This document shows positions 8,392-56,395 of a DNA stretch of 64,000 bases, one piece after another (position 1 is the stretch's first letter; every line of letters begins with the position of its first letter). The position numbers and the translations under genes were made by a program. Source of the stretch: Chiloscyllium plagiosum. Lineage: Eukaryota. The notes below the pieces were generated by a model. That model saw only the letters and a list, made by a program, of their open reading frames with translations, ran no database searches and was not told where the DNA came from. The stretch covers positions 5,485,282 through 5,549,281 of the forward strand of contig NC_057753.1 in assembly GCF_004010195.1 (NCBI RefSeq), in the 5' to 3' direction.

Positions 8392-9296
8392 TCATGACTT
8401 CACACATTTGCAGATGGAATGCATGGGATATTTCACTAGCGTCTTTAACTGATCCCTGAATTTACTTTGAGTAACTCCATAAATAAATGTATTTGTGCAG
8501 CAATTCAACAGCTGAAGCATATTTGCACTTTCAATGAGAATAAATTTGGGGTCACTGAAACCTTGGACTTCATAATCATTTGTAATTCGCTCAAGTAAGA
8601 AGTATATGACATGTGTCAACCACAAAAGAATGAAGCTGCCAGAGATGGTGAAAAGTAAGATAATGGACTTTCTCCGGCTTTCCATTTCTCGATCATTATG
8701 ATTCTCTTCATTGTTATGGACTCGGAGTCTTCTACGGACTCTACTGGCCTCTAGAATGTGTCTTACAGTCAGTGCATTAAGCAAAATAATCAGAAGGAAT
8801 GGGAGACATGGCGTTAAAAGACGATCAATCCAATGAAAAGCTGTACAGGCAGGAGAACTATAGCAGATATTTTTAAGTTTGCAGTACCAAGGCACATTAT
8901 CTATTATATAGATGGGTTCATGAAAAAAATACCATGGAATATTGCCTGCACATCCAAGTGCACAGACCAACCCTATGACGATGGCAGCTGTTTTTTCAGT
9001 GCAATATTTTGTTTTCAGCTTCTGGCAACAAATAGCCACAAATCTATCGAAGGTGAAAGTGACTGTCAACCAGACAGAGCTGAATCTGGCTGTATAAATT
9101 AATGCAATACTGACACTGCATATTGGAGTGATTGAAAGGAAACTACCTGGAAAATAAATACCAGGAATTCTGTTTAATATCACAGCGGTGATAATGACCA
9201 GCAGATCTGTGACTGCCATGGATACTAGGTATCGAGTAATACACTTGGATAGACCACATCTTCCTCGTTCCAGGATCAATATTGTCACTAAATTAA
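8392..9296 (-). CDS. Orphan class A GPCR, GPR139/GPR142-like (shark-expanded family), copy 1, exon 2 (end of TM1 to C-terminus); intact
   Basis: 7TM ORF with YLVSMAVTDLL (TM2), TFDRFVAIC (DRY equivalent), PCLPFLLI (TM5), RRKSIILLFTISGSF..LW (TM6) and NCCTNTFIYG (NPxxY equivalent). Pyrimidine-rich acceptor ctctattgcag|TTAAT at 9297/9296 is in phase 1, matching exon 1. Confidence 0.93.
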
Positions 9297-9619
9297 CTGC
9301 AATAGAGAGGGAGAACGACAGCCAGTTACAAGTACACGCCACTGTGTGTTATACATTCAGCAGTGGGACATAGATATTATGAAACAATGAAAACCAATAT
9401 AATCATTCATGACATAGATAAGATGGATGGAAGCCCTTAGATTGGTGAAACAAAAGATTAGTCAGACAGTATCAAAGTTCTTTGAATAAATTTTGAAGAT
9501 TCAAACGCATTACTAAATGCCAATCATGATATGATGAATAAAACAGATGAATAGGAAACACGTATAGATTGAACAGATGACATGCAACTGGGTCTAAGAC
9601 CAAATACAGCAAATTATAT

Positions 9620-12330
9620 TAGTGAAAAATAGACTAGTCCATTCAGCCCCTTGAACCTGCTCTACCATCCAATAAAATCATGGCTGCTCTATGGTCCACC
9701 TCCATATACCTGCCTTTGGCCCATATCTCCTTATACTTTCGCTAAACACAAAAAGACTTGAGATTTCAAATTAGCAACTGGCTCAGCACCTACAGCCATT
9801 TGTGCAAGAGCGTTTCAAACATCTACTACTCTTCGTGTGTAGAAGTGGCCCCTAACATATTTCTGGAAATACGTAGTCCTGGCATTAATTCTCATAGTAT
9901 ACCTCATAGTTATAGAAATTTCAACCAGTGGAAATAGTTTCTCATTATCTACCCTGTCACGTTCTGCTAATATCTTGAAGAATTTATTCATTACACTTAA
10001 TCTTCTAAATAATAGAGAAAAACAATCCTAATTCACATCATCTCCCCATAACCTAACCCCTGAAATACAAATATCATTCTTGTGAAACTAAATCATGCTC
10101 TCTTCAAAACCAATATATTCTTTCTGTGATGTTGTGCCCAAATCCTCTCCATGAGAGTTCTAACCAGGAGTTTGTATAACTTCAGCATCTTCTCTCCATG
10201 CACTCCGTTCCTCGAGATATAAAAATCAGTATCTCATTAGCTTTCTTGATTATTTTCTGCACATGCTCATTTAATTTGTAAGATGTTTCAAGTTTTAAGC
10301 TCAAATATCTTTGGACATCCACTGCATTCAACTTCATGCTATTTGGAAAGTACCCTGATCTATCCTTTTTTGGTCAAAAATGGGTAACTTGCAGTAGCTT
10401 ATATTGAACTCGAGCTGCTGCAGTTTTGCCCATTCACTTAGTCAATCAATGTACTCTGTGGTGTTATGCTGTTAACTACAGTGTCTACAATGCCATCGAA
10501 TATTGCATCATCAGTAAATTTGGATAAATGACTTTCCTTGCCATTTTCCAAGTCGTTAATGTATAATACAAAAAATTGAGGCCCCGACAATTTATGTACC
10601 TACACGTTATTTCTATCACCCACTGAACGAATTCCCTAACCATGTCAATCATTTGCCCTCAACTCCACAACTACTGTCCTTAGTTAAAAAAAAAACTTTT
10701 ATGTGGTACTTTATTAAATAACTTCTGCATATCCCTGTGACAACATGCACAGGCATTCTGTGTCCATTATCTTGGCCACCTTTTCAAAACCTTCAACGAG
10801 GTTTGTCATGCATGATTTAAGTGACTAGACTCCTTTCTGGCTCTCCCTTATAAATCAAAGCATTTCAAGACTTTCAGTTATTCCCTCCTTGAGTATAGAA
10901 TCCAACAATTTCCCAGCATTGACTTCATGCTAACTCGCCTGTAATTCCCAGGTTTCCTTTAGGTATTTTACCCATTAGCAGATGTTCCCAGTTTATTGTG
11001 GCCAGTTCTGTCTCATCTTGGTAATGTCGGTCTTACTTCAACCTAACACTCTGGTAGCTGATTTATGCCTTTCCCTTTCAAATTCAACCTTGAACTCGAT
11101 CAGGTTTTGATCACAATTTGATAAATGCTCACGCATGATTTGGTTTCTAATTAAGTCGGGCTCAATACTCATTGCTTGTAGCCCTCTTTCTTTATCCAGG
11201 ACATACTCCTCGGACAGACTCCAAAACATTATCTTTCTGACAGGTGCTTGTGAGCCTCTACCAATTTTGATTGCAGTTAAATCTCACATTAATAAGACAT
11301 TGGTTTTGCTGCACTCTTGCCCTAATTTCTGCATTTATACCATCGAATATTTCAGAGCTGCTATCAGGTCGACTGTATGCAATATCTATTAGACTTTTGG
11401 ATCCTTTACTGTTCCTCAGTTTCAGTCATACGGTGTCAACATTGCATGCTTTCCTCTCATTGCATCCTTCCTCATCATTGAAGTAGTTTTGTTTCTAATC
11501 AGTAAGGCTGCTCCACCTCCTCTGCCATTTCCCCAATCCATCCCACCAGCCTTGTAACCTGACATATTTCATTCCCAATACCGCCAATCTGTAGCCATGT
11601 CTCAGTAATGCCTACTCTATTACAATCACCAATTTGAATTTGTGCCTGCAGCTCATTGAATGTTTCCTTACCCTACACTCCAAACTGTCCTCAGCTCCAG
11701 TGATTTAACCGCCTAATTATTATTTCTCATTTCTGGTTGATTCAGTACGCTTCCTGCAATTTTATTATTATCTGTTCTGACTGACGTAGGATTCCTGGCT
11801 GTTTCTTTGTACTTTGTCATAACTTGGTTTTTGAAACTGTTTTGACTTTATCCACGCATTACAATCACTAACATTCTTAACTGTATGTTTGTTGGATATG
11901 ACTTAGAGAATAATTCAGAAATTATAACCCTTGAGATCCTATTCTTCGATTTTCTTGTGATTCCGGATATTCTCCAATCAGGGCCTCTTCCAATCTTTTG
12001 CCGACGTTGTTGATCCCAATATGGACCATAATGTCTGCTTCATCCTCCTTCTACTCCCATGTCTTTTCAAGGTGGTTCGAGATGTCCCTTGCTTTGGTAC
12101 CAGGCAGGCAAAACACCATGCAGAACTCTCGACCCTGCTTCGAAAGGATGCTATCTGTACCCTTCATTTTGAAGAAACTTACTAGTGCCATCTTTAGTTT
12201 TGCTCCTACCCCACGCTTGAGTGGCCTCCTGACCATAGCGCAGTGGTCACTTTGTTCATCATTCCTTTGGTCCTTTTCCTCATTCACATAGGGAGTAGGA
12301 ATCTCTTCCTTGTTGGAGACCAAATAAAAC
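9620..12330 (-). mobile_element. Old, long CR1 remnant in the GPCR intron (esterase-type ORF1, EN, RT, 3' end); predates the duplication
   Basis: GTDSIL...VFCLPGTKARDIS (ORF1 SGNH-like) and REHLSNCDQNLIEF (end of EN). Paralogs at ~35920-38950 and ~56720-59170. Confidence 0.75.
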
Positions 12331-15197
12331 ACGATTCAAAATAAATATCAAGTGTGTATTGATCGAGTTAAAACAGAATTGTGAGACTTGACTTGCTATG
12401 ACCTCCGAATATACTTTTCTATTGAAACGAGCTGCTTTGGATTGAGAAATTCACTAGAAACCTGAATGATTGAGATCCCAGAACCAGTAACCAGTAACCA
12501 GTCCAAGGAACTTTGATAAAATAATATTGACTAAATAGCAGGAGATCTATCAGCCTTTCTTTGATTGGTCCAATTCAAAGATAAATATCTATCCCTGTCA
12601 GCTAATTTTATTCCTATCTACAAATACATTGGCTTTAGCTATATAGGGTTGAAATATAAATGTCAAGGCAAAATTACTAGAAATCTACAGGACATTGGAA
12701 AGGCCACACATCGAGTACTGTGTACATTTTTTTTCTGAGGAATGATATGTTTACTCTGGCTGTATTGTAACAATGATTTGTCACATTTGCTCCAGGAATG
12801 AATAGGCGAGATCGATGTTCACTAGAATTTATACGATTGAGAAGATTTCTTATAATAAGATCTAAATATTGTTTAGCTGCTTGACAGTGCAGGTGGTGAT
12901 CTTTTTTCTCTGGGAGCCAAACCCAAACCTTAGGATCACAGTCTCAGAATAAGAGTCATTACTTTAGGACTGTGGTAAGGGCGAGTTTACTCTCGTAAAA
13001 GTATGTGAACTCTTGGAATTGACGACCATGGACAGCTGTGGAATACCAGTCGTAAGTATACTTACAGTAGAGGTTGGTAGATTAAAAACAAAATAATGCA
13101 TCTGCTGGAAATTTAAATCATGTACAGTGTATGCTGGAGAAACTCAGCACAGCAGGGTCTCTGGAGAGAGAAACAGAATTAACATTTCAAGTCCAGTATG
13201 ACTTACCTTCAGTAAAGTTCTCAAAGCTGTTAATTCTCTCTCAAAGATTCTGCTTGTAGTGCAATGTTTCTCCAGCATTTTCTGTGTTTGTGTGACCTAA
13301 TGAATGCAGGTCTCAATGAATTGAAACGGGGTCCAAAGGTGAAATGACCAACTTCCCCTCTTCAGTCGGTACTGGTGCATTCTGACTGAGTTATTGGTTT
13401 ATGTTTCCCAGGGGAAATCACGAGTCTCTTAATTCAGTTTCCCGTCAATGCTCCCTCAAGCCCATCGAGTAAGATCTGAAAGAGTTGATGTACAACATTA
13501 CAACCAAAAATTCTGCCAAAGGAAGTGAGATCATTTGAACGAAAAAGAAGGGTGCGTTAAAGAGCGTTCAGTATTATCAAGAAATGTTTGTGTAGTGCCC
13601 AAACCTGTCCATGTATAGTTACCTTCCAGATTAGAATTACAGACAACCCAACATTTGAAAGTCTGCAGTTGTTCAAGAAGGCAGATCCCCATTTTCTGCC
13701 GGGCAATTATGAATGGGCAATAAATTCTGGTCTGGTGGGGATGCTGTAATCCCATAAACGAATACGTATAATGAATAAAATCGGATTTACAAATGGATTA
13801 TAGAATTAAACCGGCTGATGTTGAGGAAAGGAATGAGCTGAAATTTAATGGCGAATCCAATGGCTAGGCTGAATGTTTCATTCTGCCAGTGAGATTGCGG
13901 AAAAGAGTGAAAGTGGAAAATATCAAGGAGGAATAGTTTTTCCAAGAAGAAAAAGTCGTGGGATGAAGGGCGTTTGCAGCAGAGAACCTGGGAGATTCTC
14001 CACTAGTAAGAATTGTGAGAGATAATTCACTCAGATAAGAAACGGCAGTAAGAGACACACTGACGAGATGTACCAACCTTTGGAAAATGGAAGTCATTGT
14101 TTCCTTTTAATTAGCAAGAATGACCAATAACGCTTTAAGGTAAAACTTAACTTCCGTCAGTCCAGTTCTTAAATGCAATCACATCTCATTCCTTACTTCC
14201 ATTGACCAGTTGTGAACTTAAAAAAAATCCACAAACTAATTGTTGGTCAAACCATTCGTTAAGTTCAGCCAGGAGTGACTCAACTTTGGAATCAAGACAG
14301 CTCATTGGATTCTTTCCAAAATCCAGTAGAGAATCAATAACACGGGAAAAGGGCAATGGCATTCAAGTCGTACAACTATTACTGTTGATGGATATGCCTT
14401 TTCTCCTCTGCTATTCACCAAGCAGGATAATGCACAATTCGAAGAGAGCAAGAAGCAACATCTTCCATTCGACTTCTTCCCTTCAGACTACATGAAGCCT
14501 GTGTATTTTCCTGGTGAAATAATGAGAAGAATTTCTGAATTTTTCGTCGAGTAGTAGCCCAGCAGGAGTGCTCTGTTTCTTGCATGGGGCAAATAACACT
14601 GAATCCATTCAAATGAATGACAAACATTCGAGACCTGGAGTCTGCAATGCCATTTGATGAATTCGTAGCTGGTGTGCATTTCACCTCTGTTCACTTCCTT
14701 CAATGTCTTCAAGTCGTTATCTATCAAAATTCTTTCAAAATGTAGTCATGATTTTAGTCAACCACTGTTTGGGGAGGGCAACGATTCCAGTTGCACAAAT
14801 AACCCTGTCTGAAGTAATGCTTCTTGACAACCTTGCAATAGTTAAGTCTAATTTTAATATCTTCCACTTTTCTCTGAACTCCCTCAATATAGGGAAAAAC
14901 AAATTTGTGTATAAAGCCTTTTACAACTTAAGCTTCCGAGCTACATTGAACTCGTTATACAACATATTCTTAGAATTCTCTAAAGGCTGGTGCCATTCTA
15001 GTGAATCTGTGCTGCTCCCCCTCCAACAGTTCAACCACTCTTCGAAAGTCAATAAATGCTTTGTTGAGGTTGGGAGCTCAGTTCTGAACACCTCGATTTG
15101 TCCACAATTGAACCAGAACATTAAATTTCTATATCCATTCAGAAAATAAAAACTTAATAATTCAATAGTTAATGAACAATTTGCAACGGTACTTTAC

Positions 15198-15267
15198 CTG
15201 GGACGGCAATAATTGCAAGTGAAGTGTAGTAAATGGCATAGACGGGGCCTCTGGGTGGTGAATGCAT
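15198..15267 (-). CDS. GPCR copy 1, coding exon 1 (MHSPPRGPVYAIYYTSLAIIAVP + G)
   Basis: ATG at 15267, 70 nt, donor CCAG|gtaaagt. Splicing to 9296 gives ...IAVP-V-NLVTILIL, a continuous TM1, and a 975-nt CDS (324 aa plus stop). Homologous exon at 40768-40837. Confidence 0.9.
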
Positions 15268-15439
15268 TTTCTCCGAGATATTTGAGATGTATCTTTAGGA
15301 GTTATATTTGCTCTGTTTGTCATTCAAAGGAACTATTCTTGTAGCTGATTTTTAACCATCAGAGACATAATTAAAATCTTCACTATTGAGTTACAAGCCT
15401 TGGGAGATGATATATCACATGACGTTGTCACCTACGTTA

Positions 15440-15495
15440 GTTGCAATCACTAAACTAACGGATGAGGTGACATCATCAGCACTCAGTCATCCAAC
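15440..15495 (-). promoter_or_regulatory. Conserved proximal element ~170-230 bp upstream of the GPCR ATG, with bZIP-like sites; paralog 41014-41067
   Basis: TTGCAAT (C/EBP-like), TGACATCA (CRE/AP-1-like) and TGCTGA/TGACTGAG on the minus strand. Nearly identical between copies. Confidence 0.4.
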
Positions 15496-16889
15496 TTGTT
15501 CATACACCAGTGTGTTCCCAAGTAACAGCAGGGTTGTCTTATGTCAGTACTGTTTTCAACGATATGCGATACTTAGTTCATTCACCCTGAGTTAGCCTTT
15601 AGCTTGGGGATTGCTTAACTTGGATGGCTGGTTTGTAATACAGAATGATAGAACAGCATATGTTCAGTTCCCATACTAGCTATTCAAATGTCCCTTTCAG
15701 AATCTAGTTCCTCATCTGAGGAATTGTACACGCCAGGTTAAGCGACCACCAGATACCTCTCGGGAATGAGAGAAGAACGAAATGTCTTTTTGGGGCAGTA
15801 GTTTCCATTATGTATTTCACACCACACACAAACGAAACTGGGTTAAAATTTGATGATGTGAATTAATATGAAGTAAATCATCTTCGATTATAACACATCA
15901 TCGAAAGTTTCTGCCCTTTGCACCCGAGTGTTGATCACCACTTCACTTCGAGCTCAAGAAGGACAATTTAGGGGGAGGGTGATAGAGCACGAACACAATT
16001 TCAGCTGGGCATGGTCCTCCAGAGTCACACTGAGAGGGACAAACGCAACTGTGGACTTCTTCAACTCTCTTCACGGACAGCAAAGTAAGACTTGTAAGAC
16101 ACGGAAGATAAACTCTTTCACAACTGGGTTTAGAGCCATCATGAATAATGGGGAATGCTGGAAACGTGCTGGGAAATAAGAGTTTGAGGTCAAACTGGAA
16201 CCTTCTCCTGACTGAAAGTGAAAAGGCAAGTTTAAGTTTCCAGTCTGAAAATGGCTGCTGCAATTATCCAACAACGTTTTAAGGAATTTATGTAGGATGT
16301 TCTGAAGCTAGGACTTTGAGGCAGTTGTTTATTTTAATGCCAGTGAATCATCTGAAAACATAATTGATTCAAATCTCCAACAAAATAGGAGGAATTCAGA
16401 GGACATTGTGGTTGACATTTGATCTTGGCAAAAGAAAGGATACAGTAGCTAAGTGCTTCCGTAACTGGATTACTTTTGGAGATACTGCACTGATAGCTTG
16501 CAGGTATAAGTTCCAAAGCCACCACTGAAGCTGGGAAACTCACATTTGGTTGTTTTAGTAAATCTGACGAGAATAAAATCCTGATATAAGTGGATATGAA
16601 ACTGTTGGGTTGTTGTAAAATTTCGTCTAGTTCACTGCCATCTTCCAGCAAATGAAACTGGATTTCCCAACCTGCTCCAGAATAGGGAGAGGATATTCGT
16701 CTACTCCTGTGTGAAAACAAATTTTCTGATAATGCACAAAATGGCTTTGAAAGATCGAGGAATTCATTTCAAGTTATTACAAGATGTTTCCCATTAAATG
16801 CGAGAATTACATTGGATTTCGATATCCAAACCCCTTCACACACGCTCAGAAACTTGAAATTATGACATGTTTGTTTAAATTTTTTATTA

Positions 16890-17985
16890 TTATTGAATTT
16901 AACTAAATTGAATTTATTGTCATGTGTTGGTAAAAACAAGGTCTGCAGATGCTGACCAGAGTCTAGATTAGAGTGGTGCTGGAAAAGCACAGCAGGTCAG
17001 GCAGCATCCAAGGAGCAGGAAAATTGACTTTTCGGGCAAAAGCCCTTCATCAGGAATAGACGTGTACTGAGGCACAGTGCGAGCAATAAAGGCAGATCAC
17101 ACAGTTAAGTAACATAGATAAGTAAATAACAAGTAAAAACACAGGCACATGTGAATCCATTCAGTATTCTAACAACAGGAGGGTAGAAACCTTTATGAAA
17201 CCGGCTGGTGCGTGTGGTCAGGCTTCTGTACCATCTCCCCGATGGTAGAGGTTGTCGAAAAACATTGCCATGGATCTTTAAGAATGCTGGCCGCCTTTCC
17301 TTAACAGCAGGCCTGTTGGCCTTTGTGATTGTCCGGGTCGAATTCACCACTCTCTGTAACCATCTCTGATCATGAATGGTACAGTTGCCATACATCCAGA
17401 CAGAATTCTCTCGACAGCGCACATATAAAAGTTGGCAAGGGTATTCGCTGTCATGCCAAATTTCCTCAGCTGCTTGGGGAGGAAGTGACGTGTTGGGCCT
17501 TTGCAAGCAGTGAATCCACATGAAGAGTCCAAGAACGCTTGTTGTGAATGATCACTCCCAGGAGCTTGACACTCTCCACTCGTTCCACCTCTGTGCTGTT
17601 AATGCGTAGGGGGGCATGAGTAACATCCCGTCGAAAGTCAATAATGAGTTCTTTGGTTTTGCCGACATTGAGAACTAGGTTGTTCTCAGTGCATCATTTT
17701 TCCAGGTCTTCCACTTCCCGTCTGTAGTCTGTTTTATCACTATCTGAGATTCTACTGAATATGGTGGTGTCACCAGCGAACATGTAAATGGCATTAGTCT
17801 GGTATTTGGCGATGCAGTCATGGATATACAGTGAGTACAGTAGGGGCTGAGTACGCACTGCTGGGGGGCTCCAGTGTTGAGTGTTAGTGAGGATGAAATA
17901 TTGCTCCAGTCTTCACTAATTGTGGCCTGTGGGTCAGGAAACTAAGGATCCAGTTGCAGAGAGTGGAGCTTAGTCTGAGATCACT
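16890..17985 (-). mobile_element. Rex1/Babar-type LINE 3' fragment, with a Penelope-type repeat inserted at ~16927-17059
   Basis: LRKFGMTANTLANFYMCAVERILSGC, VWMYGNC..DQRWLQRVV, LPSGRWYRSL.TRTSRF; AT-rich short-repeat tail. Seen only in module 1. Confidence 0.8.
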
Positions 17986-19532
17986 GCGTTTACCTTTTAT
18001 TAGTTTACTATTATTTTACTACTTTACTATTAATAGTTTGCTATTATTTTACCTTCCAACCTACTATGTAAGGAAACCACAAGATTATAAAATGCAAAAA
18101 AAAGGACTTATCAGACAGAGCTCTGAACATATTGTGCTAATCTCAGTTTGATTGAACGGAGTTCAGTTCAAAAGCCATGGATCATCGTGTATGGAATCTT
18201 TTCCTTTTGAGCAGTTTTCTTAATTTGATGATATGACATCAACATTGTTTTATTAAACTGAGCACAGAAATTCACCACGGTCTCTAAGTGGCTTGATAAC
18301 CTACAACCACGTTCGTCTCGGAAGACAAAGGTCATAGATGCATGAGGGCACTATCACCTGCAAGTTATCTTCCAAGCCACTCACCATCCTGACTTGAAAA
18401 TATATTGCTGTTCCTTCAGTGGCACTGTGGATGTCCATACAGCAAATGAATTGCAGCGGTTCAAGAAGACAGCGGAGCACCTCAAAGGTGACTAAGAATG
18501 ATCAACAAATGGGACTAAACCAGCGACAGCTCCATGAATGAACAAAAAAAAACCATTAATTTGACCTCACAAATTATACAGTACTCTATTATTCTTTCTC
18601 TCAGGCGCTGTGCCTGGATATCTAATTTCTCTCCGAGGGATGCAATAATATCTTTGTATTCAGTTCATCACCTGACGCCCAGTATGACCTCCAAGAATCT
18701 GCTTCTAATGCAGATCTTTAATTTTTATGTTTGTGTCCTTACTGTTGAGCAATATTCAGTAAAACTCCTGTAACTTTTAGTATTTTCGTGCCTGGCTTTC
18801 CTGTGCCTACATTCTCAACCTCAAAACTCTCGAAGATTCTTCTTGATGCAGCCTCAAAATGTCTGTTGGTCAGTGCATATGTGCTCATTATAGAGTCATA
18901 GAGCTGTACAGTAGGGAAACAAACCCTTCTGTCCAACTTGTCCATACTGATCAGATATCCTGAATTAATTTAATCCCAAATGCGAGCATTTGACCCATAT
19001 CCCTCTAAACTCTTCCTATTTATAAACACATTTAGATGCCTTTTCAACGTTGTAATTGTACTAGCCACCGCCCCTTCCTCTAGCAACTCATTCCATACAC
19101 TCATCACCGTCTGCACGAAAAGGGTATCCCTTAGGTTCCTTTTAAATCTTTCCCCTCTCATTTTAAACCTATGTCTTCCAGTTTCATACGCTACTATGCC
19201 AGCGGAAAGACTTTGTTGTTCACCCTATCTACAGCCCTCATGATTTTATAAATTTTGATAGCTAACCCCCCCCAGCCTCCAACGCTCTAGGGGAAACAGC
19301 ACCAGCCTATTCAGCCTCTTACTTTGACTCAAACCTTCCAACCTTGGCAACTTTGGCAACATACTTGTAAATCTTTTCTGCACCCTTTCAAGTTTCACAA
19401 CACCTTTCCTATGGCAGACAGTGGAGATTTGAATGCAGCATTCCAAAAGTGACAAAATCAGTGTCCTGGACAGTCACAGCACGACCTCCCAACTTCTATA
19501 CTGAATGCACTGACTAATAAAGGCAAGCATAC

Positions 19533-20593
19533 TTATGGAACGGGTTTTATGGAGATAATAAGTTTTCAGGAGACCGCAGAGTTCAAGGGACGTGGTAATT
19601 TATTAATGCATGTAATAGTACAATGCAAGGAGAGGCCAAATACCTACGCCGAATCTGACTTCGATGTGAGTGTAGAATTGTCCCCTTAATCTTCTGCTCA
19701 GATCAGAAGAAAAGCCAATGACACTGTCATTCTAAATACAAGTGAGTTGTCATTTTGTACATTTTTCCTGTCACTTTAACATGGCAGCAGATACTTCCTC
19801 CCCATGCATACTATTGGTTACTTAGTGCTGACTTGTTCAACTATGATTGGATTTCCAGTACATCACTCTATATTAGTGCTTACTTGTTGCGGTGATCTGA
19901 TTGGGCCATTTTGATACATGGGAAATTAAACTCGCCATGGACACTTGTGACCTTTCATCTCGCAGCTATGATGTCTGTGTCTGCTGTTTTGTACGAGACT
20001 GTAACAGTCTTCTTTGAGATGTCCCACCATTCCAACTCTCTTAGCTGCTCTCCTTGATAAGAGATATGGAGGCCCTCTCTATTACTCACAATCTAAATTT
20101 TAAAACCTTTCTTTCTAAAGTTTTGTTTCGTAATTATTATGTATGTGTGTGTGTTAAATCTATAATTTATTAGGAATCGATACGGATGATTAGAAAATCT
20201 GAAGATAACTAACTGATTAGTGTGAAATGTTCTTATGTATATGATAGCAAATAATATTGTACATTCCATCTTATTTAATCAGTTATTGTTCGAGTGCTGA
20301 GAACACACACCTTTCGTTTCGTAATTATTATGTATGTGTGTGTGTTAAATCTATAATTTATTAGGAATCGATACGGATGATTAGAAAATCTGAAGATAAC
20401 TAACTGATTAGTTTGTACATTCCATCTTATTATGATAGCAAATAATATTGTACATTCCATCTTATTTAATCAGTTATTGTTCGAGTGCTGAGAACACACA
20501 CCTTTCCCACACTCTCTAATTAAACACGTAATGCAAAGCTTATTGGTGCTTTCATCGATATGCTTTGCTGTACTTTGATAAACATCCCTAATA
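19533..20593 (-). mobile_element. Solo LTR (degenerate ends, internal 191-bp duplication)
   Basis: Paralog of 45850-46719; interrupts the CR1 at the same base. Confidence 0.6.
20125..20506. repeat. 191-bp tandem duplication
   Basis: 20125-20315 repeats at 20316-20506, identical except for an ~18-nt patch. Confidence 0.92.
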
Positions 20594-21334
20594 TTTGAAA
20601 AGTCTTCTTCACGATCCTGTCTACCTGAGCCTCTACTTTCAAGGAAATATGATCCTGCAGTCCAAGATCTCTTTGTTCAGCAACACACCGTCAGAACTTT
20701 AAGTGAATAAGTCCTGCCCTGAATTGCCTTTCCAAAATGCAGCACCTCATGCTTATCTCAATTAAACTTCATCGGCCAACCAGCCCATCTGATTAATGTC
20801 CCTTTGTACTCTGAGGTAACCTTCTGGACTTTTCACTGCACCACCAGTCTTGGCGTCATCTGTGAATGTAGTACCCATACCTCATACATCCACATTCAAA
20901 TCATTTATGAAAATGACAAAAACAATGGATCCAATAACAATCCTTGTGATACATTACTGGTCACAGGTCTTCAGTCTGAAAAGCAATCCTTTCCCTCCAC
21001 CGTCTGCCAACTACCTTCTAGCCAGTTCCACATCCAAATGGCTAATTTTCCACGTATTCCATATGATTGAACCTCGCTCACCACCCTACCATGTAGAACA
21101 TTGTCCAATTCCTTAGTGAAGTTCATATAACACACGTACGCTGCTTTTCAATGTAACCCGCTTTGGGATTCTCGTCATAAGGCATAATATGGGTAGAATT
21201 AGCATAATCTGTTTTACTATGAGGAGGTGATGAGGAGGAGGTATTATCACCAGACCATTAATACAGAGATCCAGGTAATGTTCTGAGGCACAAGGTCAAA
21301 TCAGGTCACTGCAGATGGAGATCAGCCAGCTGGA

Positions 21335-42261: not shown

Positions 42262-45200
42262 ATCTGTGAAAGGTCAGTCCACGTGAACGAATGTGTGGTC
42301 GACTCCATTGTGAGTGCTGTTCCCTCTCCCAGCCTGTTTTCTCACGCGCAGATTGATAATGGGGAGGGACCTATTCATCTACACTGAGTTGGGAGGGGAT
42401 TCAGTCAGGGAGGTGTGACTATACAAATTTGGACGATCTACACGTGGGCCGGACTGGAACCAATGTCTGAGGCAGTGCTTTTGCTAACGCTGTTGGGGAG
42501 GATTTAAACTAATGTGGCAGGGGGATAGGAACCCAAATGAAGAGGTTAGTGGTGAGTAAGGAGATAGTAACTAAAGCCTGTAAGGGACCAGATAATGAGA
42601 TCAGCATGACTAAGAGGAAGAGTAGACATGGAGCAGATGATGATTTCAAAGGGACAGATGACCTGAGTTGTATTTGTTTTAATATGAGATGGGTCGTAGG
42701 TAAGGCAGTTGAACTTAGGAGATGAATTAGACCCTGGGAGTATGATGTTATTGCTACTGCTGAGACTTGGTTGAGGGAAGGGCATGATTGGCAACTACGT
42801 ATCCCAGGATGTAGATGTTTCAGGCGGGATAGAGAGAGAGAGAGGAAAAAGGGGGGTGGAGGAATTGCATTACTGGTCAGAGAGGATGTCACAGCTGTGT
42901 TGAAGGAGAGCACTACGGAAGACTCGAGCAGTGAGGCAATATGGGCAGAGCTCAGAAATAGGAAGGGTGCGGAAACAATGTTGGGCGTGTACTATTGACC
43001 GCTCAATAGCGAGCCTGTGACAGTGATACAAACATGTAAATAGATTATGGAAAGATGGAGGAACAACAGGATGGGAGATATTAACATTCCCAACATTGAC
43101 TAGGATTCATTAGTGTTAGAGGTCTAAATGGAACAGAATTTGTAAGGAGCATCCAGGAGAGTGTTATAGACTTGATGTTGGGGAATGAGCCCGGTCAGGG
43201 TGGTTTAAGTTTCAGTAGGGGAATGCTTAGGCTATAGTGATCACATTTCCGTACATTTTAGAATGCTCATGGACAAAAATGAAAGTGGTCCTAAAGGAAG
43301 TTTTCTAAATTGGGAAAGCCAACCACAGCAAAATTCGGCAAGAGCTGGGGAATGTAGATTGGGAGTAGCTTTTTGAAGGTAAATGCACATTTGAAATGTG
43401 GGAGTCCTTTAAAAAGAGGTTGATCAGAGTGCATGACAGACATGTCCCTGTGAAAATGAAGGATAGAAATGGCAAGATTAGGGAACCATGGATGACAGGT
43501 GAAATTGTAAGATTAGCAAAAAGGAAAAAGGAAGCATACATTTGGTCTAGGCGACTGAAAACAGACGAAGCTTTGGAAGAATATTGGGAAAGTAAGACCA
43601 ATCTTAAATAAGGAATTAAGAGGGATAAAATGAGTTCTGAAATATCTTTAGCAAACAGGGTTAAGGAAAATCCTAGAGTCTTTTATTTCTATATAAGGAG
43701 CACGAGGATAACTAGAGAAAGGTTGCCCACTCAAGGACAAATGAGTAAAGTCATGCGTGGAGTTAGAGAAAGTGGGTGAGATCCTTAATGAATACTTTGC
43801 ATTGGTATTCACCGAGGAGAAGCACATGACGGATGTTGAAGTTATGGATAGATGTTGGATTACTCTGGTGAAGCCGGCATAAGGAGGGAGGAAGTGTCAG
43901 GTACTCTAAAAGGTGTTAAAGTGGACAAGTCCCCAGGTCAAGATGGGATCTATCGCTGGTTACTGAGGGAAGCGAGAGAGGAAATAACTGAGACTGTAAC
44001 AGATATATTTGCAGCATCCTTGAATATGGGTGAGGACTGGAGCTTTGCTAGTGTTGTCCCCTTGTTTAAGAAGGGTAGTAGGGATACTCCAAGTAATTAT
44101 AGACTGGTGACCTGATGTCAGTTGTAGGGAAGCTGCTGGAGAAGATACTGAGGGATAGGATCTAATTACATTTGGAAGAAAATGGCCTTATCAGTGGTCA
44201 GCAACATGATTTTGTGCAGGGTAGGTCATGCCTTACCAACGTAATAGAATTATTTGAGGAAGTTACAAAGTTGATTGATGAGGGAAGAGCAGTAGATGCG
44301 ACATACTTCAGTAATGTGATTGATAAGATTCCCCATGGTCGGCTGATGGAGAAATTGAAGTCACATGGGGTCCAGACTGTACTAGCTAGATGAATAGAGA
44401 GCTGACTGATCATCAGGAGACAGAGAGTAGTAATGGAATGGAGTTTCTCAAAATGGAGAACTGTGACCAGTGGTGTTCCTCAGGGATCCGTGTTGGGACC
44501 ACCGTTATTTGTGATACACACAAACGATCTGGAGGAAGGTGTAGGTGGTCTGATTAGCGAGTGTGCAGATGACCCTAAGATATGTGGATCAGCAGATAGT
44601 GAAGGGGTCTGTCAGAGAATACAGCAGAATATAGATAGTTTGGAGAGTTAGGCAGAGAAATGGCAGATGGAGTTCATTCCGGGTAAATGCTAGGTGATGC
44701 ATTTTGGAAGATCCAATTCAAGATTGAATTTTCGGTAAATGGAAAAACCTTGGGGAAAATTGAAGTACAGTGAGATTTGGGTGTTCAGATCCATTGTATA
44801 CTGAAGGTGGCAACGCAGGTCGATGGAGAGGTCAAGAATGTATACCATATGTTTTTCTTCATCGGACGGGGTATTGAGTAAAAGAGTTGGCAGGTCATGT
44901 TAGTTACATAGGACTTTGGTTTTGTCACATTCGGAATACTGCATACAGTCCTCGTCGCCACATTATCAAAATTACGTGGATGCTTTGGAGAGGGTGCAGA
45001 GGAGGTTCACTACGATGTTGCCTGGCATGGAAGGTGCTATATTTGAAGAGAGGTTGTGTAGATTAGGACTATGTTCATTAGAAAGACGGAGGTGGAGGGG
45101 GACCTGATTGAGGTTTACAAAATCGTGAGAGGTGCAGACAGGGTGGATAGCAAGAAGCTTTTTCCTGGAGTGGGGGAATCAATTACTTGGGGTCACGAGC

Positions 45201-45480
45201 TCAAAGTGAGAGGGGAAAGTTTAAGGAAGATACGTGTGGAAAGTTCTTTACGCAGGGGGTGATGGGTGTCTGGAATGCGTTGCCAGCGGAGGAAGTGGAG
45301 GCGGGCACGATAGCATCATTTAAGAGGTACCTAGATAAATGCATGAATGGGCCAGGAGCAGAGGAAGGCAGACTCTTAGAAAGTAGGCTTAGATAGAGGA
45401 GTTGATTGATGCAGACTTGGAGGACCGAAGGGCCTGTTCCCGTGCTGTAATTTTCCTTGTTCTTTTTCTTTGTACTTTCT
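42262..45480 (+). mobile_element. CR1/HER1 LINE with near-complete but decayed ORF2
   Basis: AETWLREG..., KSPGQDGIY, SGVPQGSVLGP, LERVQRRFT; same tail as the 31826 element. Confidence 0.92.
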
Positions 45481-45849
45481 CTTCTCAACTTAAAACTGTG
45501 CCTTCCAAGTATTGACTCTGCTACCCAAATGAAAAGACTTGACTTTTCACCCTATCTATATGCCTCATGATTTTGGAAGCTTTCATAAGGTAACCCCTGA
45601 GCTTGTGATGCTCTAGGGAAAGCAACCATGCCTTATTCAGCCTCTTCCTATCGCTCAAAACTCTCCAATGTTGTCAACATCCTTGAAAATATTTTCGGCA
45701 CTCTTTTAAGTTCCACAACATCCTTCCCTAGCAGGCAGAAAAGAATTGAATGCGTTATTCCAAAAGTGGCCTAACCAATGTCCTTTACAGTCACAACGTC
45801 ACCTGCCAATGCCTATACTGAATGCACTGTCTAATATAGGCTCGCATAC

Positions 45850-46719
45850 TGTTGGGGCGATTCTGTGGAATTAATACATTTTCTGCAAACCAAAAAGTTC
45901 AAAGGACATGACAATTCTTTCATGCATCTACTGGTGCAGTGCAAGGAGTGGTCAAAGACTACCCCAAATGTGACCTCAACGTGATTATCCAATTGCCCAC
46001 TTAATCTTCAGCTCAGATCAGAAGAAAAGTCAATGATGTTCTAATCGTAAAAACAAATAAATTGATTTTTATGCACTTTTCTTGTAACATTCAAGTAATG
46101 GCACATCCACCCACTGCCTCACCCTTGTATACTAGTGGTTACTTAGTGCTGTGTTATTCAACTATGATTGGGTTTCCAGGACATCATTTACCTCTTGTTG
46201 CTGTGATCTATTTGGCCATTTTAGTTCGTGGGATATTGAAGTCTTCGTGGTCACTTGTGCCCTTTTATCACTCAATGAGGTATGCGTCTGCTATTTTGTA
46301 CAAGGCTATAACAGAGTCTTCTTTGAGATTTCTCGCCATTCCAACACTCTTAGGTACTCTCCTTGATAAGAGAGAGTGATGTCCCTCTCTATTCCTCGTA
46401 ATTCATTTTCAAGCCTTTCTTTCTAATGTTTTGCTAAGTGATGATTATATACGTGTCTGGTAAATATAAAACATACTATGAGACTATATCCATGATTTCT
46501 AAACAAATCTTGACAGAGATAACTAATTGGTATGAAGTGTTCTTATATTTAGAACAACAGAGAATGTTGCAAATTCAATCTTACTGAACAGTTCTTGTTT
46601 TAAGTGCTGAGAACACAGGCCATTTTCACACTCTGTAATCTCTGTTAAAAATGTCCTGCAACGCTTCTTGGTGTTTTCGTTGGCCATTTCCTGCTGTACT
46701 GTCGTTGGGAGCCCTAACA
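45850..46719 (-). mobile_element. Solo LTR, 870 bp
   Basis: TGTTGGGG...CCCTAACA inverted ends, 5-bp TSD catac/catat, minus-strand CCAAT and TATA-like motifs. Confidence 0.72.
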
Positions 46720-47526
46720 CATATGAAACCCCTTCTTCACTATCATGTCTACTTGCAACTTTACTTCTAAGAAACTATGAACCTGCAGTCCAAGGTCTCT
46801 TTGCTCAGCAACACTCCCCAAACACTTACAATTAAGTTTAAACGCTCTGCCATGATTTGCCTTTCAAAAATCCTGTACCTCATGTTTATGTGAATTTAAC
46901 TCCAGTGGTCACTCTTCGGCCCATCAGCCTATCTGAAGTACTCTAAAATAACCTTCTTCGCTATCCATTGCACCACCAATTTTGCTGTCATCTGCAAAGT
47001 TACTAACCATATCTCTTATGTTCACATTTTAATCATTTATGTAAATAGCAAAATGCAGTGGACCCAATATCGATCCTTGAGCCATACTGCTGGTCACAGG
47101 CCTCCAGTCACAAAAGCAAGTCTCGAGTAACCGCCCCCCCCCACCCGTTTCCTACCTTCGAGGCAGTTCTAATCCAAATGACTAGTTCTCCTAATATTCC
47201 ATGTGATCTATCTTTGCTGAACAGTCCACCATGTAGAACGATGTCGAATGCCTTACTGATGTCCATATGGATCACGTCCACCACTGCATATTCATCAATA
47301 TGTTCTTTCTCATTGTAATCCGTCTTGGAATTATCTTCACGAGTCAGACCACAAGTATGAGGGAAATGGGCATAATCTGTCGTGCAATGGGGAGGTGATG
47401 GCGCCGTAGTTTTATCAACAGCCGATTTTTCCAGAGATCCAGGTAACGTTCTGAGGCTCTGGTTCAAGCCCTACCATGGCAGATAGTACTTGTAACGAGA
47501 TCAGCAAACTGTGCCACCGTGCCGGT

Positions 47527-47841
47527 GGGCGGCACGGTGGCACAGTGGTTAGCACTGCTGCCTCGCAGCGCCAGAGACCCGGGTTCAATTCCCGCCTCAG
47601 GCGACTGACTGTGTGGAGTTTGCACGTTCTCCCCGTGTCTGCGTGGGTTTCCTCCGGGTGCTCCGGTTTCCTCCCACAGTCCAAAGATGTGCAGGTCAGG
47701 TGAATTGGCCATGCTAAATTGCCCGTAGTGTTAGGTAAGGGGTAAATGTATGGGTGGGTTGCGCTTCGGCGGGGCGGTGTGGACTTGTTGGGCCGAAGGG
47801 CCTGTTTCCACACTGTAAGTAATCTAATCTAATCTAATCTA
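47527..47841 (+). mobile_element. Young HE1 SINE
   Basis: Full head-to-tail consensus with (TAATC)n tail. Confidence 0.92.
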
Positions 47842-50800
47842 TATATAATAGGCAATGAGTTCTCTGATTGGGACTGCTAATCTGGTCTAATCAAGATCCG
47901 CTGGTATCCAGATAAAAAAGGGGATGATTGTAGGAGGCACTGAAACACGGGTGCATGACTCTATGCGGCATTACTCAATTCAATGACTGACCATATGTAA
48001 ATAAAGGCTGACTTGGTGATGAGGTCTCAGCCTTCCTGAAGTTATTTCAGTGTGATTTAAATTCAATACAAATCTGGAATTAAGAGTCGAATGATGACCA
48101 TGAAATCAATATTGATTGTCAGAAAATCCCATCTGGTTGACGAACATCCTTTGGGGAAGGACATCTTTATCAGGTCTGGTCGGCATGTGACTTCAGACCT
48201 ATAGCAATTTTTCTGACTCTCAACTGCCCTCTGGGTAATTAGGGATGGACAACAAATGCTGGCCTGACCAGTGATGTTCACGCCCTGTGAATTAGTTTTA
48301 ACTCAAAAAGGAAAATAGAGGCTGAAATTAAATAAATATGATGTCCTGTATTGTACAGTATTCTACTTCCAGGGCTGATTGACAACAGTGACAATAGGCA
48401 ACTCAATCTTAGTGCATTACTCTCATTACATTGTCTCCAAGATGCTGTGTTGCCCATGCTGCATTCGATTGGAAGCAGCAACTGTTTCTCTCTTCACCGA
48501 TGCTGCCAGATGTTCTGAGTTTCTCCAGCACTTTATGTTTTCCGATTTGCAGCAACCATTGTACTTTGTCTTGATTTGTGTGTCCTCAGGTGCTGTAATT
48601 GTTAGTGCAGTTGTCATTTTGCAACAAGAATAAGCCAATTAGTCCATCAAGCCTGCCTTGCCATTCATTATCGACAACCCAAATTCATTTTACCCAACCC
48701 GTCCCCATTACCTTGTGCACATTTTATAATCAATACTGAACCAATTTATAACAAAAACATGTTAAAAGACTAAGTTCTTTGTGCCAGAGAATTCCAAAGT
48801 TTCACAACTGTCTGACTCAAAAACGAAGACTTGGAATCCAAAACCTAACAGTCACCCCTTTGTTTTTAAATTGTGTCCTTGGTTCTAGACTCCCAAACCT
48901 TCTGAAACATCTTAACTGCATGTACACTGTCTACCCCTTTAAGTATTGTGTAAATTTCAATTAGATCGCCTCTCGTTCTTCTAAACTCTATGAAATACAT
49001 GTCCAGTTTGCCCAAACTTTCATAGGAGAGACCCGCTGTTCTGGGAAGAAGTCTGGTGAACCTTTGTTCCACTCCCTGTATGGTAATAATATCTTTCCTC
49101 AGAACAGGAGACCAAAACTGCACACTGTACCCCAGATATGTCCACGAGTATGTCATTGAGTATATTAGCTGTTTCGTGTGAGGTGTAACACAAATATTGT
49201 ATTCTCTGTGTAGACAATGTTTATCCTCTAATATTCCAATTGAACGATTTGAATGGTGCTGCTAGGGAATTCTTCACCAGGGATTTGGAAAAATGACCAT
49301 GACAGAACCAGGCTCGCTTTTGGCCCCACATAAAATGATTGCAAGTGATTGCATCTGAGATCAGAATATTTTTTAGCCTGAATTGTGCTGAATGATGACA
49401 GTACTAAACTACTTGCAACCCTTCTGCCAGTTCACTTACTAAAACCAAGGATTCCCTTTTTCTCACATCCTGTCTGCCCAGCTAATCGAATCATCCAGTC
49501 CTTGAATCATTTGTGCATTTTTTCATCATGTTCCCAGACTTCTGTAGTGAATGTTGAGATGTTTACTGCTGCACTAACGTTCCCTTTGTATAAAGACGTC
49601 GACAGAAATATTTCTCCTGGAGTTCGTCACATATTAAGTTCTCAATGGGACAGTGTCTCATTCAATGAGGGAGCTCGAGTATCAATTCGAGCCCCACACT
49701 CCCATTGTTTGCTGGACCAGCCTCCTGCCGCTCACTCTTCTCCCTGGGCCTTCCAACCTACCGCTCATTTTCAACAAATATTTTCTGTGACTTGCCATCT
49801 GATTTTCATCGACTATCCTGAACATCTGCTGATAGCGTTTATGCAGCACCTCTATCCTTTCAAACACCTTCCACTTTTCAGGTCTGCAGAATGGTTCTGC
49901 ACGAACAGTCATTGGACCCGAAACATTAGGTCTGTTTTCTCTGCCAGACATGTTGAGATTCGCCATTACTTCAATTTTTGTAAGATTTGCAGCATCCTCA
50001 GTTTTTTGTTTTACGTATGTGCATGTCAATCATATGCGCTGGGTGAATTGATCAATTTGGAAGCCCTGACGCAGTGACGAACTAAAAACCAATGCATTAG
50101 GTACATTAGCTATTGAACTTAAAGTGCGTATGTGCATTTCTATCACAGTGGATCTGGCAGTACCTGCGGAGAGAATTTGGATTTAATGTTTTGGTTCCAT
50201 TGACTGCTGCCCAGTTCTGAGGAAGGGTTACTAGACGTAAAACATTAATTCTGATTTCTCTCTACAAATGCTGCCAGACCTATTGAGATTTTCAGCAAAT
50301 TTTGCTTTTGTTCCTTATTTCTTTCACAGTTCTTTCAGTTTTTGTCCTGGTAATTCTCGTCGGTGATCCAGTGCTATCACATTCTTCCTCACCTGCAGAG
50401 GTTAGAACAGCACGCAGTACTCTAACAGAGGCTGAATTAACGTTTTCCAAAGTTCCATCATAACCTTGATGCCTCCAGGCAAAATATATCTCGCGTATTG
50501 TTACAAAAAGAGCCCTACTACCAATGCAGCACTTGGGACAGCCAATGAGTTTGACTTTCCATGCGGAGGCAACTACCTCTAAAAAGATCGGATGCAAGGG
50601 TATGGAGAAAAAAAAGCAAGTAATTGGCTGTGAGGACCCAGGATATGTTGAGAAGTCGAATGGCCTTCTCCCGCGCTGAAACAATTCTGTCTGATACATC
50701 GCTCCCAGATCCGCCTGCTCTCCTCCCATTGGCTCGGAACTGCTGTGATTCATCACCTGTACCTCCCACGGCCGAAGCGATCGCATGCTCAGAAGGCGCA

Positions 50801-50859
50801 GATCGTTGGTGAAGGCATGCACAGTATCCAGGGGGAATGTGCACCGATAAGGAATTCAA

Positions 50860-51615
50860 TGAAGAAAAAAAATGAAAAAAGAATGTGTAATGGGAGGAGT
50901 AATAATACTGAAGGAGGTATATGTAAATGGAGGAGTTATAATACTGAGAATAGAATGCATGAATGGTGGAGAATTTGTATGATGAAGGGATATGTAAACA
51001 GAAAAAAAATCATTCTTAGGCAGAGATGTGTAAAAAAGGGACTAATATTACCGAGAAACGAGTATGAAAGTTGAGGAGAATAAATACTGAAGAAGTGATA
51101 TGCAAATGGAAAAATACTTCTGAGGAAGGGCTATGCAAATGGAGAGCACCAATATTGAGAAAGTGATGCCTAAAAAAAGATGTAATATTACTGAAGAAAG
51201 GATGTCTAATTGGAGAAATATTACAGAGTAAGGAATGTGCAATCGGCGTAATAATACCGAGAAAGGGATTTGCAAATGGAGATATAACATTGAGCAGGAA
51301 GTGTGTGTAAATGAAGGAGAGCATTATAGCGAGGAATAGATGGTTAAAAAGTGAGGGGACTGTAAATAGAGACGAAAAAGTACTGAGGAAAAGATATTTT
51401 AAAAAGTGACGGGCTGCTTAAATGTAGGAGAAATGATAGCTGAGAGGAGGTCGTTTAAGAAGTAAATGGATGTGAAAGTAGAGATATGATGACTGAGCAG
51501 GGGATGATTAGAATGCGAAGTGGCTGTAATGAGGATTGTGCCCCAAATGTTCAGGAAGTGAGGGATCTATAATTGCAGGTTAAATGATAATTGAGCAAGA
51601 CATATCTTCAAAGTC
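50860..51615 (+). repeat. Same minisatellite, shorter array
   Basis: Same consensus and the same downstream flank. Confidence 0.8.
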
Positions 51616-54206: not shown

Positions 54207-55712
54207 TTATTGATATTTTTCATCACTAATATCTGAGCTATTGTGAAAACTGGTTTAGCACTGGATAAGTGTAAAACCACTTTCTAGCAGTCATTTGTCT
54301 TCACCTAAATGCCTTAAATGACGGAAGTTACGGCCGCCAGTAATCAGCATTTGATGTTGTTTTGAACTTCCGTTGAGTTCATTCCCTGAGGTAAAAAGAC
54401 CTGCAGCGTAGCCTTCACCACCTTTACAGGGAACCCTTTTGTGGATTTGATGTGGGAGCTGAGAGTTGAAATAGCTATCCTCGTTGAAAGGCTTTCAGAA
54501 AGCATCTGGAAGAATTTACATTTTTAATGACACATGTCTATTACAATATCCGTGCTCTTGTACAGAGATGCTGGACTGAAAGAAATCTGGATCATATAAT
54601 ATCTTATCACTTTATTCTCTGAGAATTAGCAATTGTTTTGACCCAAGTGTTTTTTGTTCAAAGTTAATCTGTGAAAGTTTCCTTATTTTCTCATTCACTG
54701 ATGTGCATTAGAGAGCCTCTGTGGTTGGGAATGTTTAGGAGACTGAATTTGTTTCATTCAATATTTCAAAGCGTTTATTGCTTTATGTCGTTTTGCATAA
54801 GGCTCATTATAATAAAGAAATAGATATTTGCTTGATGCATCTTTTAATTCTGTACCTAACGGAGATAAAGTATACAATGGACTTTTTGGCAACTGTTTCA
54901 TTCATGCGATGTGGGTTTCGTTGGCTGATTCAGCATTTATTGCCTATCCCTAGTGGCTTTCTTGAACCTCTACAGTGCAACTCCGCAGATTACTTTACGT
55001 AGGTCATATGACACAGATTGAGACGTGCATCAACCACAGTCTGTTGTGTGCATGTTTCCAGACAAGACTGTCAAGATAAAGTTACTATCTAGCCAGGGAC
55101 CAGTCAGATTGCTTTGGAACACAGACAAAATGTGAGATCCAGGTACTGGAATAATAATTACGTCCATGTAATATTGTCAATTATTGTGAAAACCGATCGG
55201 ATTCATTATCTGGTTCATACCTTTTCACTATGAAAATCAATCATTCTTGCTTGATCTGGCTTACAGCAATATGGTGGATCTTTAGTGACCCATGTAAATG
55301 TCCTAGCAAGCCAATAAGTTTAAGGGCATGATTTGATAATCCTCAATTTCAGTTTCCTACATTTTCACTAGATCCCTTGATCAATTAAAATTATCTTAAC
55401 TTTGAACATACTTAATGACTCAACATTGATTGCCCTCATTCACAATTCCTCAGATTCTGAAGCTGTCCATGTACAAAGTGCAGCAAGACCTGCACAATAT
55501 TTAGGTTTGGCCCGACAACTGGAAAGCAACATTTGCACCATACAAATTCCAGGCTATTTTGGTCTCCAACAAAAGAAAATTTAACCATCACCTTTAGTCA
55601 TTCAATTAACTCAAATTCTCCCATTATCAATATCCTGAGGATTATAGTGGGCCAGAAATTGAACTGGACTAGTCACTCTGGCTGCAAGATCAGATTAGAC
55701 GCTCATATCAGA

Positions 55713-56395
55713 ATGGTATGACATTCGTCAACCACAAAAAGATGAAGCTGCCTGAGATTGTGAAGAATAAGATAATAAACTTTCTCTGGTTTTCCATTTC
55801 TGCATCATTATGCGTCTCTTCAGTGTTATGGACCCGGAGTCTTCTACAGGCTCTACTGGCTACTAGAATGCACCTTACAGTCAGCACTTTAAGCAGAATA
55901 ATCAGAAGGAATGGAATGCATGGAGTTAAAAGATGATATATCCAATCAAAATCTGTCCAGGCCAGATAAGTATAATGAATATTTTTAAGTGTGCAATACC
56001 AAGGCAGATTGTCTATTATGTAGCTGGGTTCATGTATAAAATACCATGGGATATTGGCTACACATCCCAGTGCACAGACCAATCCTATGACAAAGGCTGC
56101 TGTTTTCTCGATTTCAGCTTCTGGCAACAAATAGCTACAGATCCATCGAAGTTGAAATTGACTGTCAACCAGACAGAACTGAATCTGGCTGCATAAATTA
56201 ATGTAATACTGGCACTGCATATCAGAGTGATGGAAAGGGAACTATCTGGAAAATAAATACCAGGAATTCTGTTAAATCTCACAGCAGTAATAATGACTTG
56301 CATATCTGTCACTGCCATGGACACCAGGTATCGAGTAATTCATCTAGATCTACCGCATCCTTCTCATGCCAGGATCAATATCATCACTACATTAA
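55713..56395 (-). pseudogene. GPR139-like GPCR copy 3, exon 2 pseudogene
   Basis: After acceptor catacag|TTAAT it reads NVVMILILA*EGCGRSR*ITRYLVSMA (two stops). Frameshifting deletion in ICL2 near 56110, truncation after TM6, and no exon 1 upstream. Confidence 0.9.

Follow-up and report, generated by a model that had tools for sequence, protein, structure and literature searches.

Receptor genes and their tandem units

The stretch analysed here, a window of 64,000 nucleotides (64 kb) from the genome of Chiloscyllium plagiosum (NC_057753.1, positions 5,485,282 to 5,549,281), carries three loci, g1, g2 and g3, that resemble class A G protein-coupled receptors (GPCRs) and all lie on the minus strand (Table 1). 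An earlier interpretation made from the letters alone, here called the sequence-only reading, had described three paralogs in differing states of decay, and this description is borne out: g1 is intact, g2 is frameshifted and g3 is in a worse condition than the 'truncated' gene that had been proposed. Joining the two exons of g1 across the predicted splice gives an open frame of 324 amino acids (aa) and an intact class A GPCR, while a gene model lacking exon 1 would have its first in-frame Met at residue 50 and would lose transmembrane helix 1 (TM1). Exon 1 is not a chance match, because a second copy is found at 40837-40768 (tblastn, E 2e-6) and because the N-terminal pattern Met-His-x20-Pro-x-Asn/Asp/Ile opens 84 of the best 120 database homologs; the g1 and g2 copies are identical at 64 of 70 nucleotides (nt) without a gap. 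The 'hidden micro-exon' of the sequence-only reading is thus real, but it is an ordinary short first coding exon that is annotated in 84/120 relatives. The accompanying claim of an N-terminus without an N-glycosylation sequon is confirmed in the g1 sequence, and a sequon before N1.50 occurs in 0 of the 84 homologs that bear the pattern. Conservation extends upstream of the coding part, where the non-coding block agrees with its g2 counterpart at 53-61 of 70 nt per block, and falls to 28-51 in the seven blocks just upstream.

As assembled, g2 carries a 9-nt in-frame deletion near 35081 and, 18 nt further on, a 1-nt deletion near 35063, which gives a predicted product of 246 aa without TM6-7. 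The g3 remnant has nonsense codons at the positions of g1 codons 34, 42 and 257 together with a 13-nt deletion, and about 1.7 kb has gone from it, TM7 and helix 8 included; no exon-1 match for g3 is present within the 64-kb window. The window stretch was found in 4 of 16 listed sequencing runs (one study), none of them recorded as RNA, which says nothing on expression.

Whole units have been duplicated, as seen from collinear self-BLAST blocks that are 65-79% identical and lie 24-27 kb apart. A fourth unit is probable, since in addition to the flank listed in Table 1 the segment 63869-64000 matches 5825-5965, and its exon 2, if kept, probably lies just past the right end of the window at ~66-67 kb. 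A fifth unit to the left was considered and rejected, 310-1081 being the flank of unit 1 itself. The ratio of nonsynonymous to synonymous substitution (dN/dS) is 0.31 for g1 and g2 at a dS of 0.25, and 0.37 and 0.32 for the remaining pairs, with pairwise dS ranging over 0.25-0.39; these values suggest that the copies are old and were under constraint through most of their existence, and that g2 and g3 were broken later. The tandem units, the pseudogenes and a dN/dS of 0.31-0.37 before decay support the birth-and-death array that had been claimed, and the array in this window, taken alone, is ordinary birth-and-death evolution.

Table 1 Positions of the receptor genes and duplicated units in the window
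Feature	Position	Strand	Description
g1 exon 1, coding part	15198..15267	-	70 nt, ATG at 15267, Met to mid-TM1, phase-1 GT donor
g1 intron	9297..15197	-	5901 nt, GT-AG, pyrimidine tract before AG acceptor; predicted from sequence
g1 exon 2	8392..9296	-	From the last part of TM1 to the stop codon
Conserved non-coding block upstream of g1 exon 1	15268..15490	-	Candidate 5' untranslated region or promoter (putative function)
g2 exon 1, coding part	40768..40837	-	70 nt; tblastn match, donor seen
g2 exon 2	34709..35612	-	9-nt deletion and 1-nt frameshift, end of TM5/intracellular loop 3
g3 exon 2 remnant	55700..56395	-	Three stops, 13-nt frameshift, 3' end deleted
Tandem unit 1	310..24876		~24.5 kb; self-BLAST
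Tandem unit 2	24877..51305		~26.4 kb; self-BLAST
Tandem unit 3, shortened	51306..59166		Matches unit 1 310-11940 minus 6850-8588; cut inside intron, exon-1 part absent
Downstream flank of probable fourth unit	59730..64000		59730-63124 matches 2254-5748, offset ~57.5 kb

The g1 protein matches PF00001 with 79 bits against a cut-off of 30.5 (E 4e-22) and displays the class A landmarks N25, D54, D107-R108-F109, C83/C162, P189, W249 and Y296. The motifs DRF, LWLT and NTFIY, which had been called non-canonical, are all present, but DRF is a common class A variant and P7.50 is also missing in human GPR139 (NFFLY); the loss of P6.50 is the sole motif departure of g1 that differs from GPR139. An AlphaFold2 model of the homolog P0010 (76% identical, 70-row alignment) gives a full seven-transmembrane fold with a mean confidence (pLDDT) of 88.5, in which TM1 is predicted to start at residue 8 and extracellular loop 2 (ECL2) to form a β-hairpin. 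GPR139 is reported to bind Trp and Phe through F3x33, H5x43, W6x48 and N7x38 (PMC5430874). By hand mapping, g1 has Y91, D181, W249 and N282 at these positions, that is, two identical residues, one conservative and one changed. Most members of the window subfamily have a charged pocket core of N2.61, R3.36, D3.37, D5.42, R5.43, W6.48, E7.36 and N7.39; among 98 close homologs, R3.36 occurs in 92, D5.42 in 89, E7.36 in all 98 and N7.39 in 91. Such a core would suit small zwitterionic ligands, either amino acids or short peptides.

A chondrichthyan family within the GPR139-like group

A search with the exon-2 protein returned 2543 proteins at E<=1e-5 from 4255 candidates, and 119 of the best 120 of these belong to 17 elasmobranch species (sharks, skates and rays), mostly under the automatic name 'probable GPR139'. 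The top matches, in Chiloscyllium punctatum and the whale shark, are 86% identical. Among the best 120, Heterodontus accounts for at least 26 (including 20 located on a single 59-Mb sequence), Heptranchias for at least 20, Hemitrygon for at least 13 and Rhinoraja for at least 12. An exhaustive search gave 1505 clusters at 50% identity, 116 of which have E<=1e-30; from the 18 of these that were looked up, 15 are chondrichthyan (one from the chimaera Callorhinchus), one is from coelacanth and one from salamander. Tandem arrays, pseudogenes and a large copy number, all found here, are features of a repertoire of chemosensory or immune type. With three copies in this window and no fewer than 26 clusters of close paralogs in Heterodontus, the family does not look like a 1:1 ortholog with few paralogs. 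The lineage-specific repertoire of the sequence-only reading is therefore upheld in its size (2543 matches, 116 clusters), but its range is chondrichthyan-wide, not narrow.

The elasmobranch models that RefSeq and GenBank call 'probable G-protein coupled receptor 139' (GCC38226.1 and XP_048475335.1; 86% over exon 2) belong to the same family and display the same two-part N-terminus, the same motifs and many copies per genome; their labels are automatic only, and the Atlas annotations likewise consist of automatic names alone (GPR139, FMRFamide-receptor-like). Further members bear the automatic names GPR15-like, TRH receptor-like, vasopressin V2-like, capa receptor-like and tachykinin receptor-like (P0012, P0080, P0190, P0166, P0144, P0188), so that counts based on names will miss copies. 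A 1244-aa Mustelus model named sodium channel alpha-like also holds a receptor segment and is probably a fused gene model.

Orphan receptors make up the more distant matches; they come from coelacanth, teleosts, bichirs, salamanders and amphioxus, and for the most part they too bear the automatic name GPR139. When the salamander protein was used as the query (25 matches), 20 amphibian clusters came back at 66-100% identity, then sturgeon at 46% and four elasmobranch proteins at 32-33%; each of the 20 clusters is named for a different species, so the amphibian ortholog appears to be single-copy. No amniote ortholog of this amphibian and sturgeon orphan turned up in the searches made. In a tree of 21 rows rooted on amphioxus, which contains three bony-vertebrate lineages, the 12 chondrichthyan rows group together with support of 90/90 and are sister to amphibians plus sturgeon at 100/99. 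The approximately unbiased (AU) test rejects coelacanth plus silverside as the alternative sister (p-AU 0.003), and a 37-row tree with two long invertebrate outgroups supports the amphibian and sturgeon sister at 91/81. A short, sequon-free N-terminus is common to the amphibian, coelacanth, teleost and amphioxus members, which makes it ancestral to the whole clade and no special feature of the window array. Partial amphioxus and bichir models become faulty immediately ahead of N1.50, a hint that the place of the intron may be ancestral as well; in GPR139 the intron presumably falls in the codon preceding N1.50.

Human GPR139 is the best of 45 Protein Data Bank (PDB) sequence matches to the window receptor (E 1e-9) and ranks first in Foldseek (7vug), and it is likewise the top match for the coelacanth, salamander and amphioxus relatives. 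The two share W6.48, N7.39, an aromatic residue at 3.33, an NxxxY motif without P7.50 and a two-exon gene. They differ in H5x43, which is replaced by Asp, in R6.51, which is replaced by His or Tyr, and in P6.50, which is usually lost; the window family moreover has a cysteine pair between C3.25 and ECL2, a longer ECL2 hairpin and many copies instead of one. Identity to human GPR139 is ~26% (67 of 256 chain residues identical by visual count), whereas the human and zebrafish GPR139 orthologs are 70% identical (PMC7318219), and g1 scores 41 bits against GPR139 compared with 134-140 bits, at 33-34% identity, against the salamander and coelacanth orphans. On the grounds of identity, and of many copies where a single one is expected, orthology to GPR139 was rejected. 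A search with an amphioxus profile for true GPR139 and GPR142 returned 16 proteins, none of them from a vertebrate. The label 'GPR139-like' can stand in so far as, among characterised receptors, GPR139 comes closest in both sequence and fold, but the family most probably does not descend from GPR139 or GPR142 themselves.

A possibly closer relative has been described under other names. GPR210 is a non-mammalian orphan beside GPR139 and GPR142 with three subtypes, GPR210A, GPR210B and a third that is unnamed (Rinne et al. 2019, PMC6504862), and an 'Orphan 139-like' entry is listed in a table of a 2017 review (PMC5207463). Like the bony-vertebrate relatives in our tree, which have a short N-terminus, these are non-mammalian orphans close to GPR139/142 that fall into three lineages. 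In contrast to the window family, the GPR210 sets comprise low-copy genes of coelacanth, gar and teleosts, amphibians not being listed among them, and the words 'shark' and 'cartilaginous' have 0 occurrences in the main text of that paper (PMC6504862). The family is most likely a chondrichthyan clade within this non-mammalian GPR139-like (GPR210-type) group, arising by expansion of one such lineage.

Pocket, output side and possible functions

For three sets of TM columns, 25 in the pocket, 28 facing the G protein and all the others, we calculated mean pairwise identity; the columns were treated as independent and placed by what we take to be the generic class A numbering. For 20 deep paralogs (14 chondrichthyan by name and six placed in the clade by the tree) the values are 0.23 in the pocket, 0.46 in other TM columns and 0.72 on the G-protein face. 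The corresponding values are 0.98, 0.78 and 0.89 for the amphibian orthologs (18 of 20, two partial sequences being omitted), and 0.72, 0.72 and 0.88 for the 98 close homologs, which are those of the best 120 with 290-345 aa. Pocket strings follow the same pattern, with 24 distinct strings in 25 Heterodontus paralogs versus 3 in 18 amphibians. A variable pocket with a constant G-protein face in the deep paralogs, set beside an invariant amphibian pocket, fits a diversified ligand-sensing repertoire. The best reading is that a single ligand site is preserved in the low-copy ortholog, whereas in the chondrichthyan subfamilies the pocket would have been altered and the output side kept. The amphibian ortholog (P0231, P0282-P0298) is itself an orphan under strong conservation; all 18 sequences carry Ser at 1.50 and Asn at 2.50, so that it lacks the usual sodium-site aspartate.

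We favour the explanation that the array in the window is probably one local part of a very large family of orphan chondrichthyan receptors of class A, with many-input, one-output sensing. An ancestral GPR139-like gene, surviving as an apparently single conserved gene in amphibians and sturgeon, would have been expanded by repeated unequal crossing-over of entire ~25-kb gene units; the units are observed here, and this mechanism is a plausible source of them. New copies would be held under purifying selection for a while, and many would then be lost through point lesions and deletions of the kind observed in g2 and g3. With a single intracellular face retained, the paralogs probably all couple to one G protein, by analogy with GPR139 perhaps Gq/11, whereas the pocket would have been re-tooled between subfamilies for ligands that are presumably small and charged.

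Several points weigh against this explanation. In the window subfamily the pocket does not stand out from other TM columns, either as conserved or as variable (0.72 vs 0.72 in the 98 homologs, p=0.38), so pocket-focused diversification is not evident among recent duplicates; the supposed likeness to a chemosensory or immune family accordingly finds its sequence-level support across deep paralogs and not within this subfamily. The deep paralogs were picked by hand, they differ in divergence from the amphibian set (overall identity 0.43 vs 0.80), and the assignment of pocket and face columns depends on the presumed numbering. Tree rows were hand-picked from 328 proteins, with true GPR139 and GPR142 absent from all trees, and the counts per genome are lower bounds because only the best 120 of the 2543 matches were listed. 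VIA Z-scores are tied at 26-28, so that amino-acid and peptide receptors are not separated by fold. Finally, g1 deviates from near-invariant columns at five positions, among them position 174, where it has Cys and 98 of 98 close homologs have Trp; this change, private to g1, and the death of two of the three copies suggest that the array may be decaying in C. plagiosum.

Where such receptors would act can be stated only tentatively. Surface chemosensation or other sensory neurons on the one hand, and an internal neural, endocrine or reproductive use on the other, are each possible to a similar degree, and leukocyte or mast-cell-like sensing appears somewhat more doubtful.

In its most specific form, the first of these uses would make the family a dedicated external chemosensory system, situated in the nose, in taste buds, in solitary chemosensory cells or in the skin, that would offset the tiny olfactory receptor (OR), TAAR and V1R repertoires of cartilaginous fishes and would probably detect amino acids or peptides. 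We hold this to be possible but rather unlikely. The size of the family, its arrays and pseudogenes, the short N-terminus and the variable pocket with a constant G-protein face all agree with it, as does the retention, identical or conservative, of three of the four Trp/Phe positions of GPR139 in g1 (Y3.33, W6.48, N7.39). Teleost TAARs and lamprey TARLs are comparable large lineage-specific expansions from a low-copy ancestor, although from a different one. In the catshark, V2R genes number only 34, and every other olfactory family has just 4-9 (PMC10116579). However, the same study already explains the catshark nose by V2Rs in microvillous neurons (PMC10116579), and no GPCR is among the 50 top genes of a catshark brain and olfactory library (PMC11979771), an observation that carries little weight for a large family.

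It is also conceivable, if still less likely, that the family is an immune or nociceptive repertoire by analogy with MRGPRs and formyl-peptide receptors (FPRs), expressed in leukocytes, mast-like cells or somatosensory neurons and responding to microbial or host peptides. MRGPRs and FPRs of mammals are birth-and-death class A repertoires with tandem clusters and pseudogenes, and thus show the same genomic behaviour as the window family, although they have a different ancestor. Peptide receptors typically have an ECL2 hairpin and a C3.25-ECL2 cysteine pair like those described above, and the niche may be open in cartilaginous fishes, where MAS1 and its relatives, an orthogroup that includes the MRGPRs, are reported missing (PMC8455134). 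Against this, GPR139, the closest receptor that has been characterised, is a receptor of the brain, and the likeness is one of analogy, not homology.

Dosage or neutral drift, in which a duplication-prone region multiplies one receptor for one ligand class and most copies are redundant and dying, seems to us about as improbable as an immune role. It would account for two dead copies out of three, the odd substitutions in g1, the conserved pocket core within the subfamily and the copying of entire 25-kb units together with their repeats, but not readily for a dN/dS of about 0.3 or for deep subfamilies with very different pockets that are retained in sharks, rays and chimaera. By far the least credible alternative is that the database label is literally correct and these genes are shark co-orthologs of mammalian GPR139 or GPR142. 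GPR139 is indeed the best solved-structure match and has the two exons and the NxxxY motif without proline, but the low identity and bit score given above, and TM3-ECL2 cysteines that are present in g1 and absent in the aligned GPR139 chain, speak against it.

Repeats in the window and significance of the family

Several repeats lie in the window. An inverted repeat at 53023-53272 / 53957-54206 has 250-nt arms that are 99.6% complementary and 684 nt apart, in ~73%-diverged unit DNA, and reflects either a very recent duplication in inverted orientation or an artefact of the assembly; its arms hold a ~135-nt dispersed element that is also found at 16929-17060 (91%). The same element makes up a hairpin at 36702-36921 (101-nt arms, 95% complementary, 18-nt spacer) that resembles a miniature inverted-repeat transposable element. 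Fragments similar to long interspersed elements at 32509-34233 and 43169-44903 are in opposite orientation and 79% identical, and a match to RVT_1 at 33157-33495 is weak (E 6e-6, below cut-off). Copies of a ~300-nt repeat of short interspersed element type occur at 47536-47837, 63111-63424, 4556-4905 and 1087-1382. A purine-rich, strand-skewed degenerate repeat is present in units 1 and 2 (~23400-24700 and ~50500-51500), with a GC skew of +0.39 at 24001-26000, and 20121-20506 is a tandem duplication of 191 nt at 94% identity. An Rfam scan of the window gave 0 matches.

Genes of the family are already in the databases under automatic names, while the family itself and its expansion are apparently undescribed: no paper on either was found in the literature searched, most subscription journals lying outside its scope. 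A whale shark paper states that cartilaginous fishes have a relative paucity of GPCRs, and 'GPR139' is absent from its readable supplementary files (PMC8455134). A possible counterpart of the family is orthogroup OG0000365 in its supplementary file 5 (157 PF00001 proteins, only 12 taxa, not in the human-gene list).

The misleading automatic name hides the family. Whatever the tissue in which it acts, a count of no fewer than 26 close paralogs in a single genome, together with more than 100 clusters at 50% identity, contradicts the 'GPCR-poor' view of these animals, and the family is a concrete candidate that is testable with existing shark RNA-seq. The near-invariant amphibian ortholog is a good target and offers a clean route to the ancestral ligand. 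It is a tentative and, on present evidence, rather improbable proposal that one GPR139-like orphan gave rise to an unrecognised extra chemosensory GPCR family in cartilaginous fishes, with many dozens of pocket-diversified receptors per genome; if true, this family would rival or exceed the V2R repertoire and would explain how sharks achieve broad chemical detection with few olfactory receptors.

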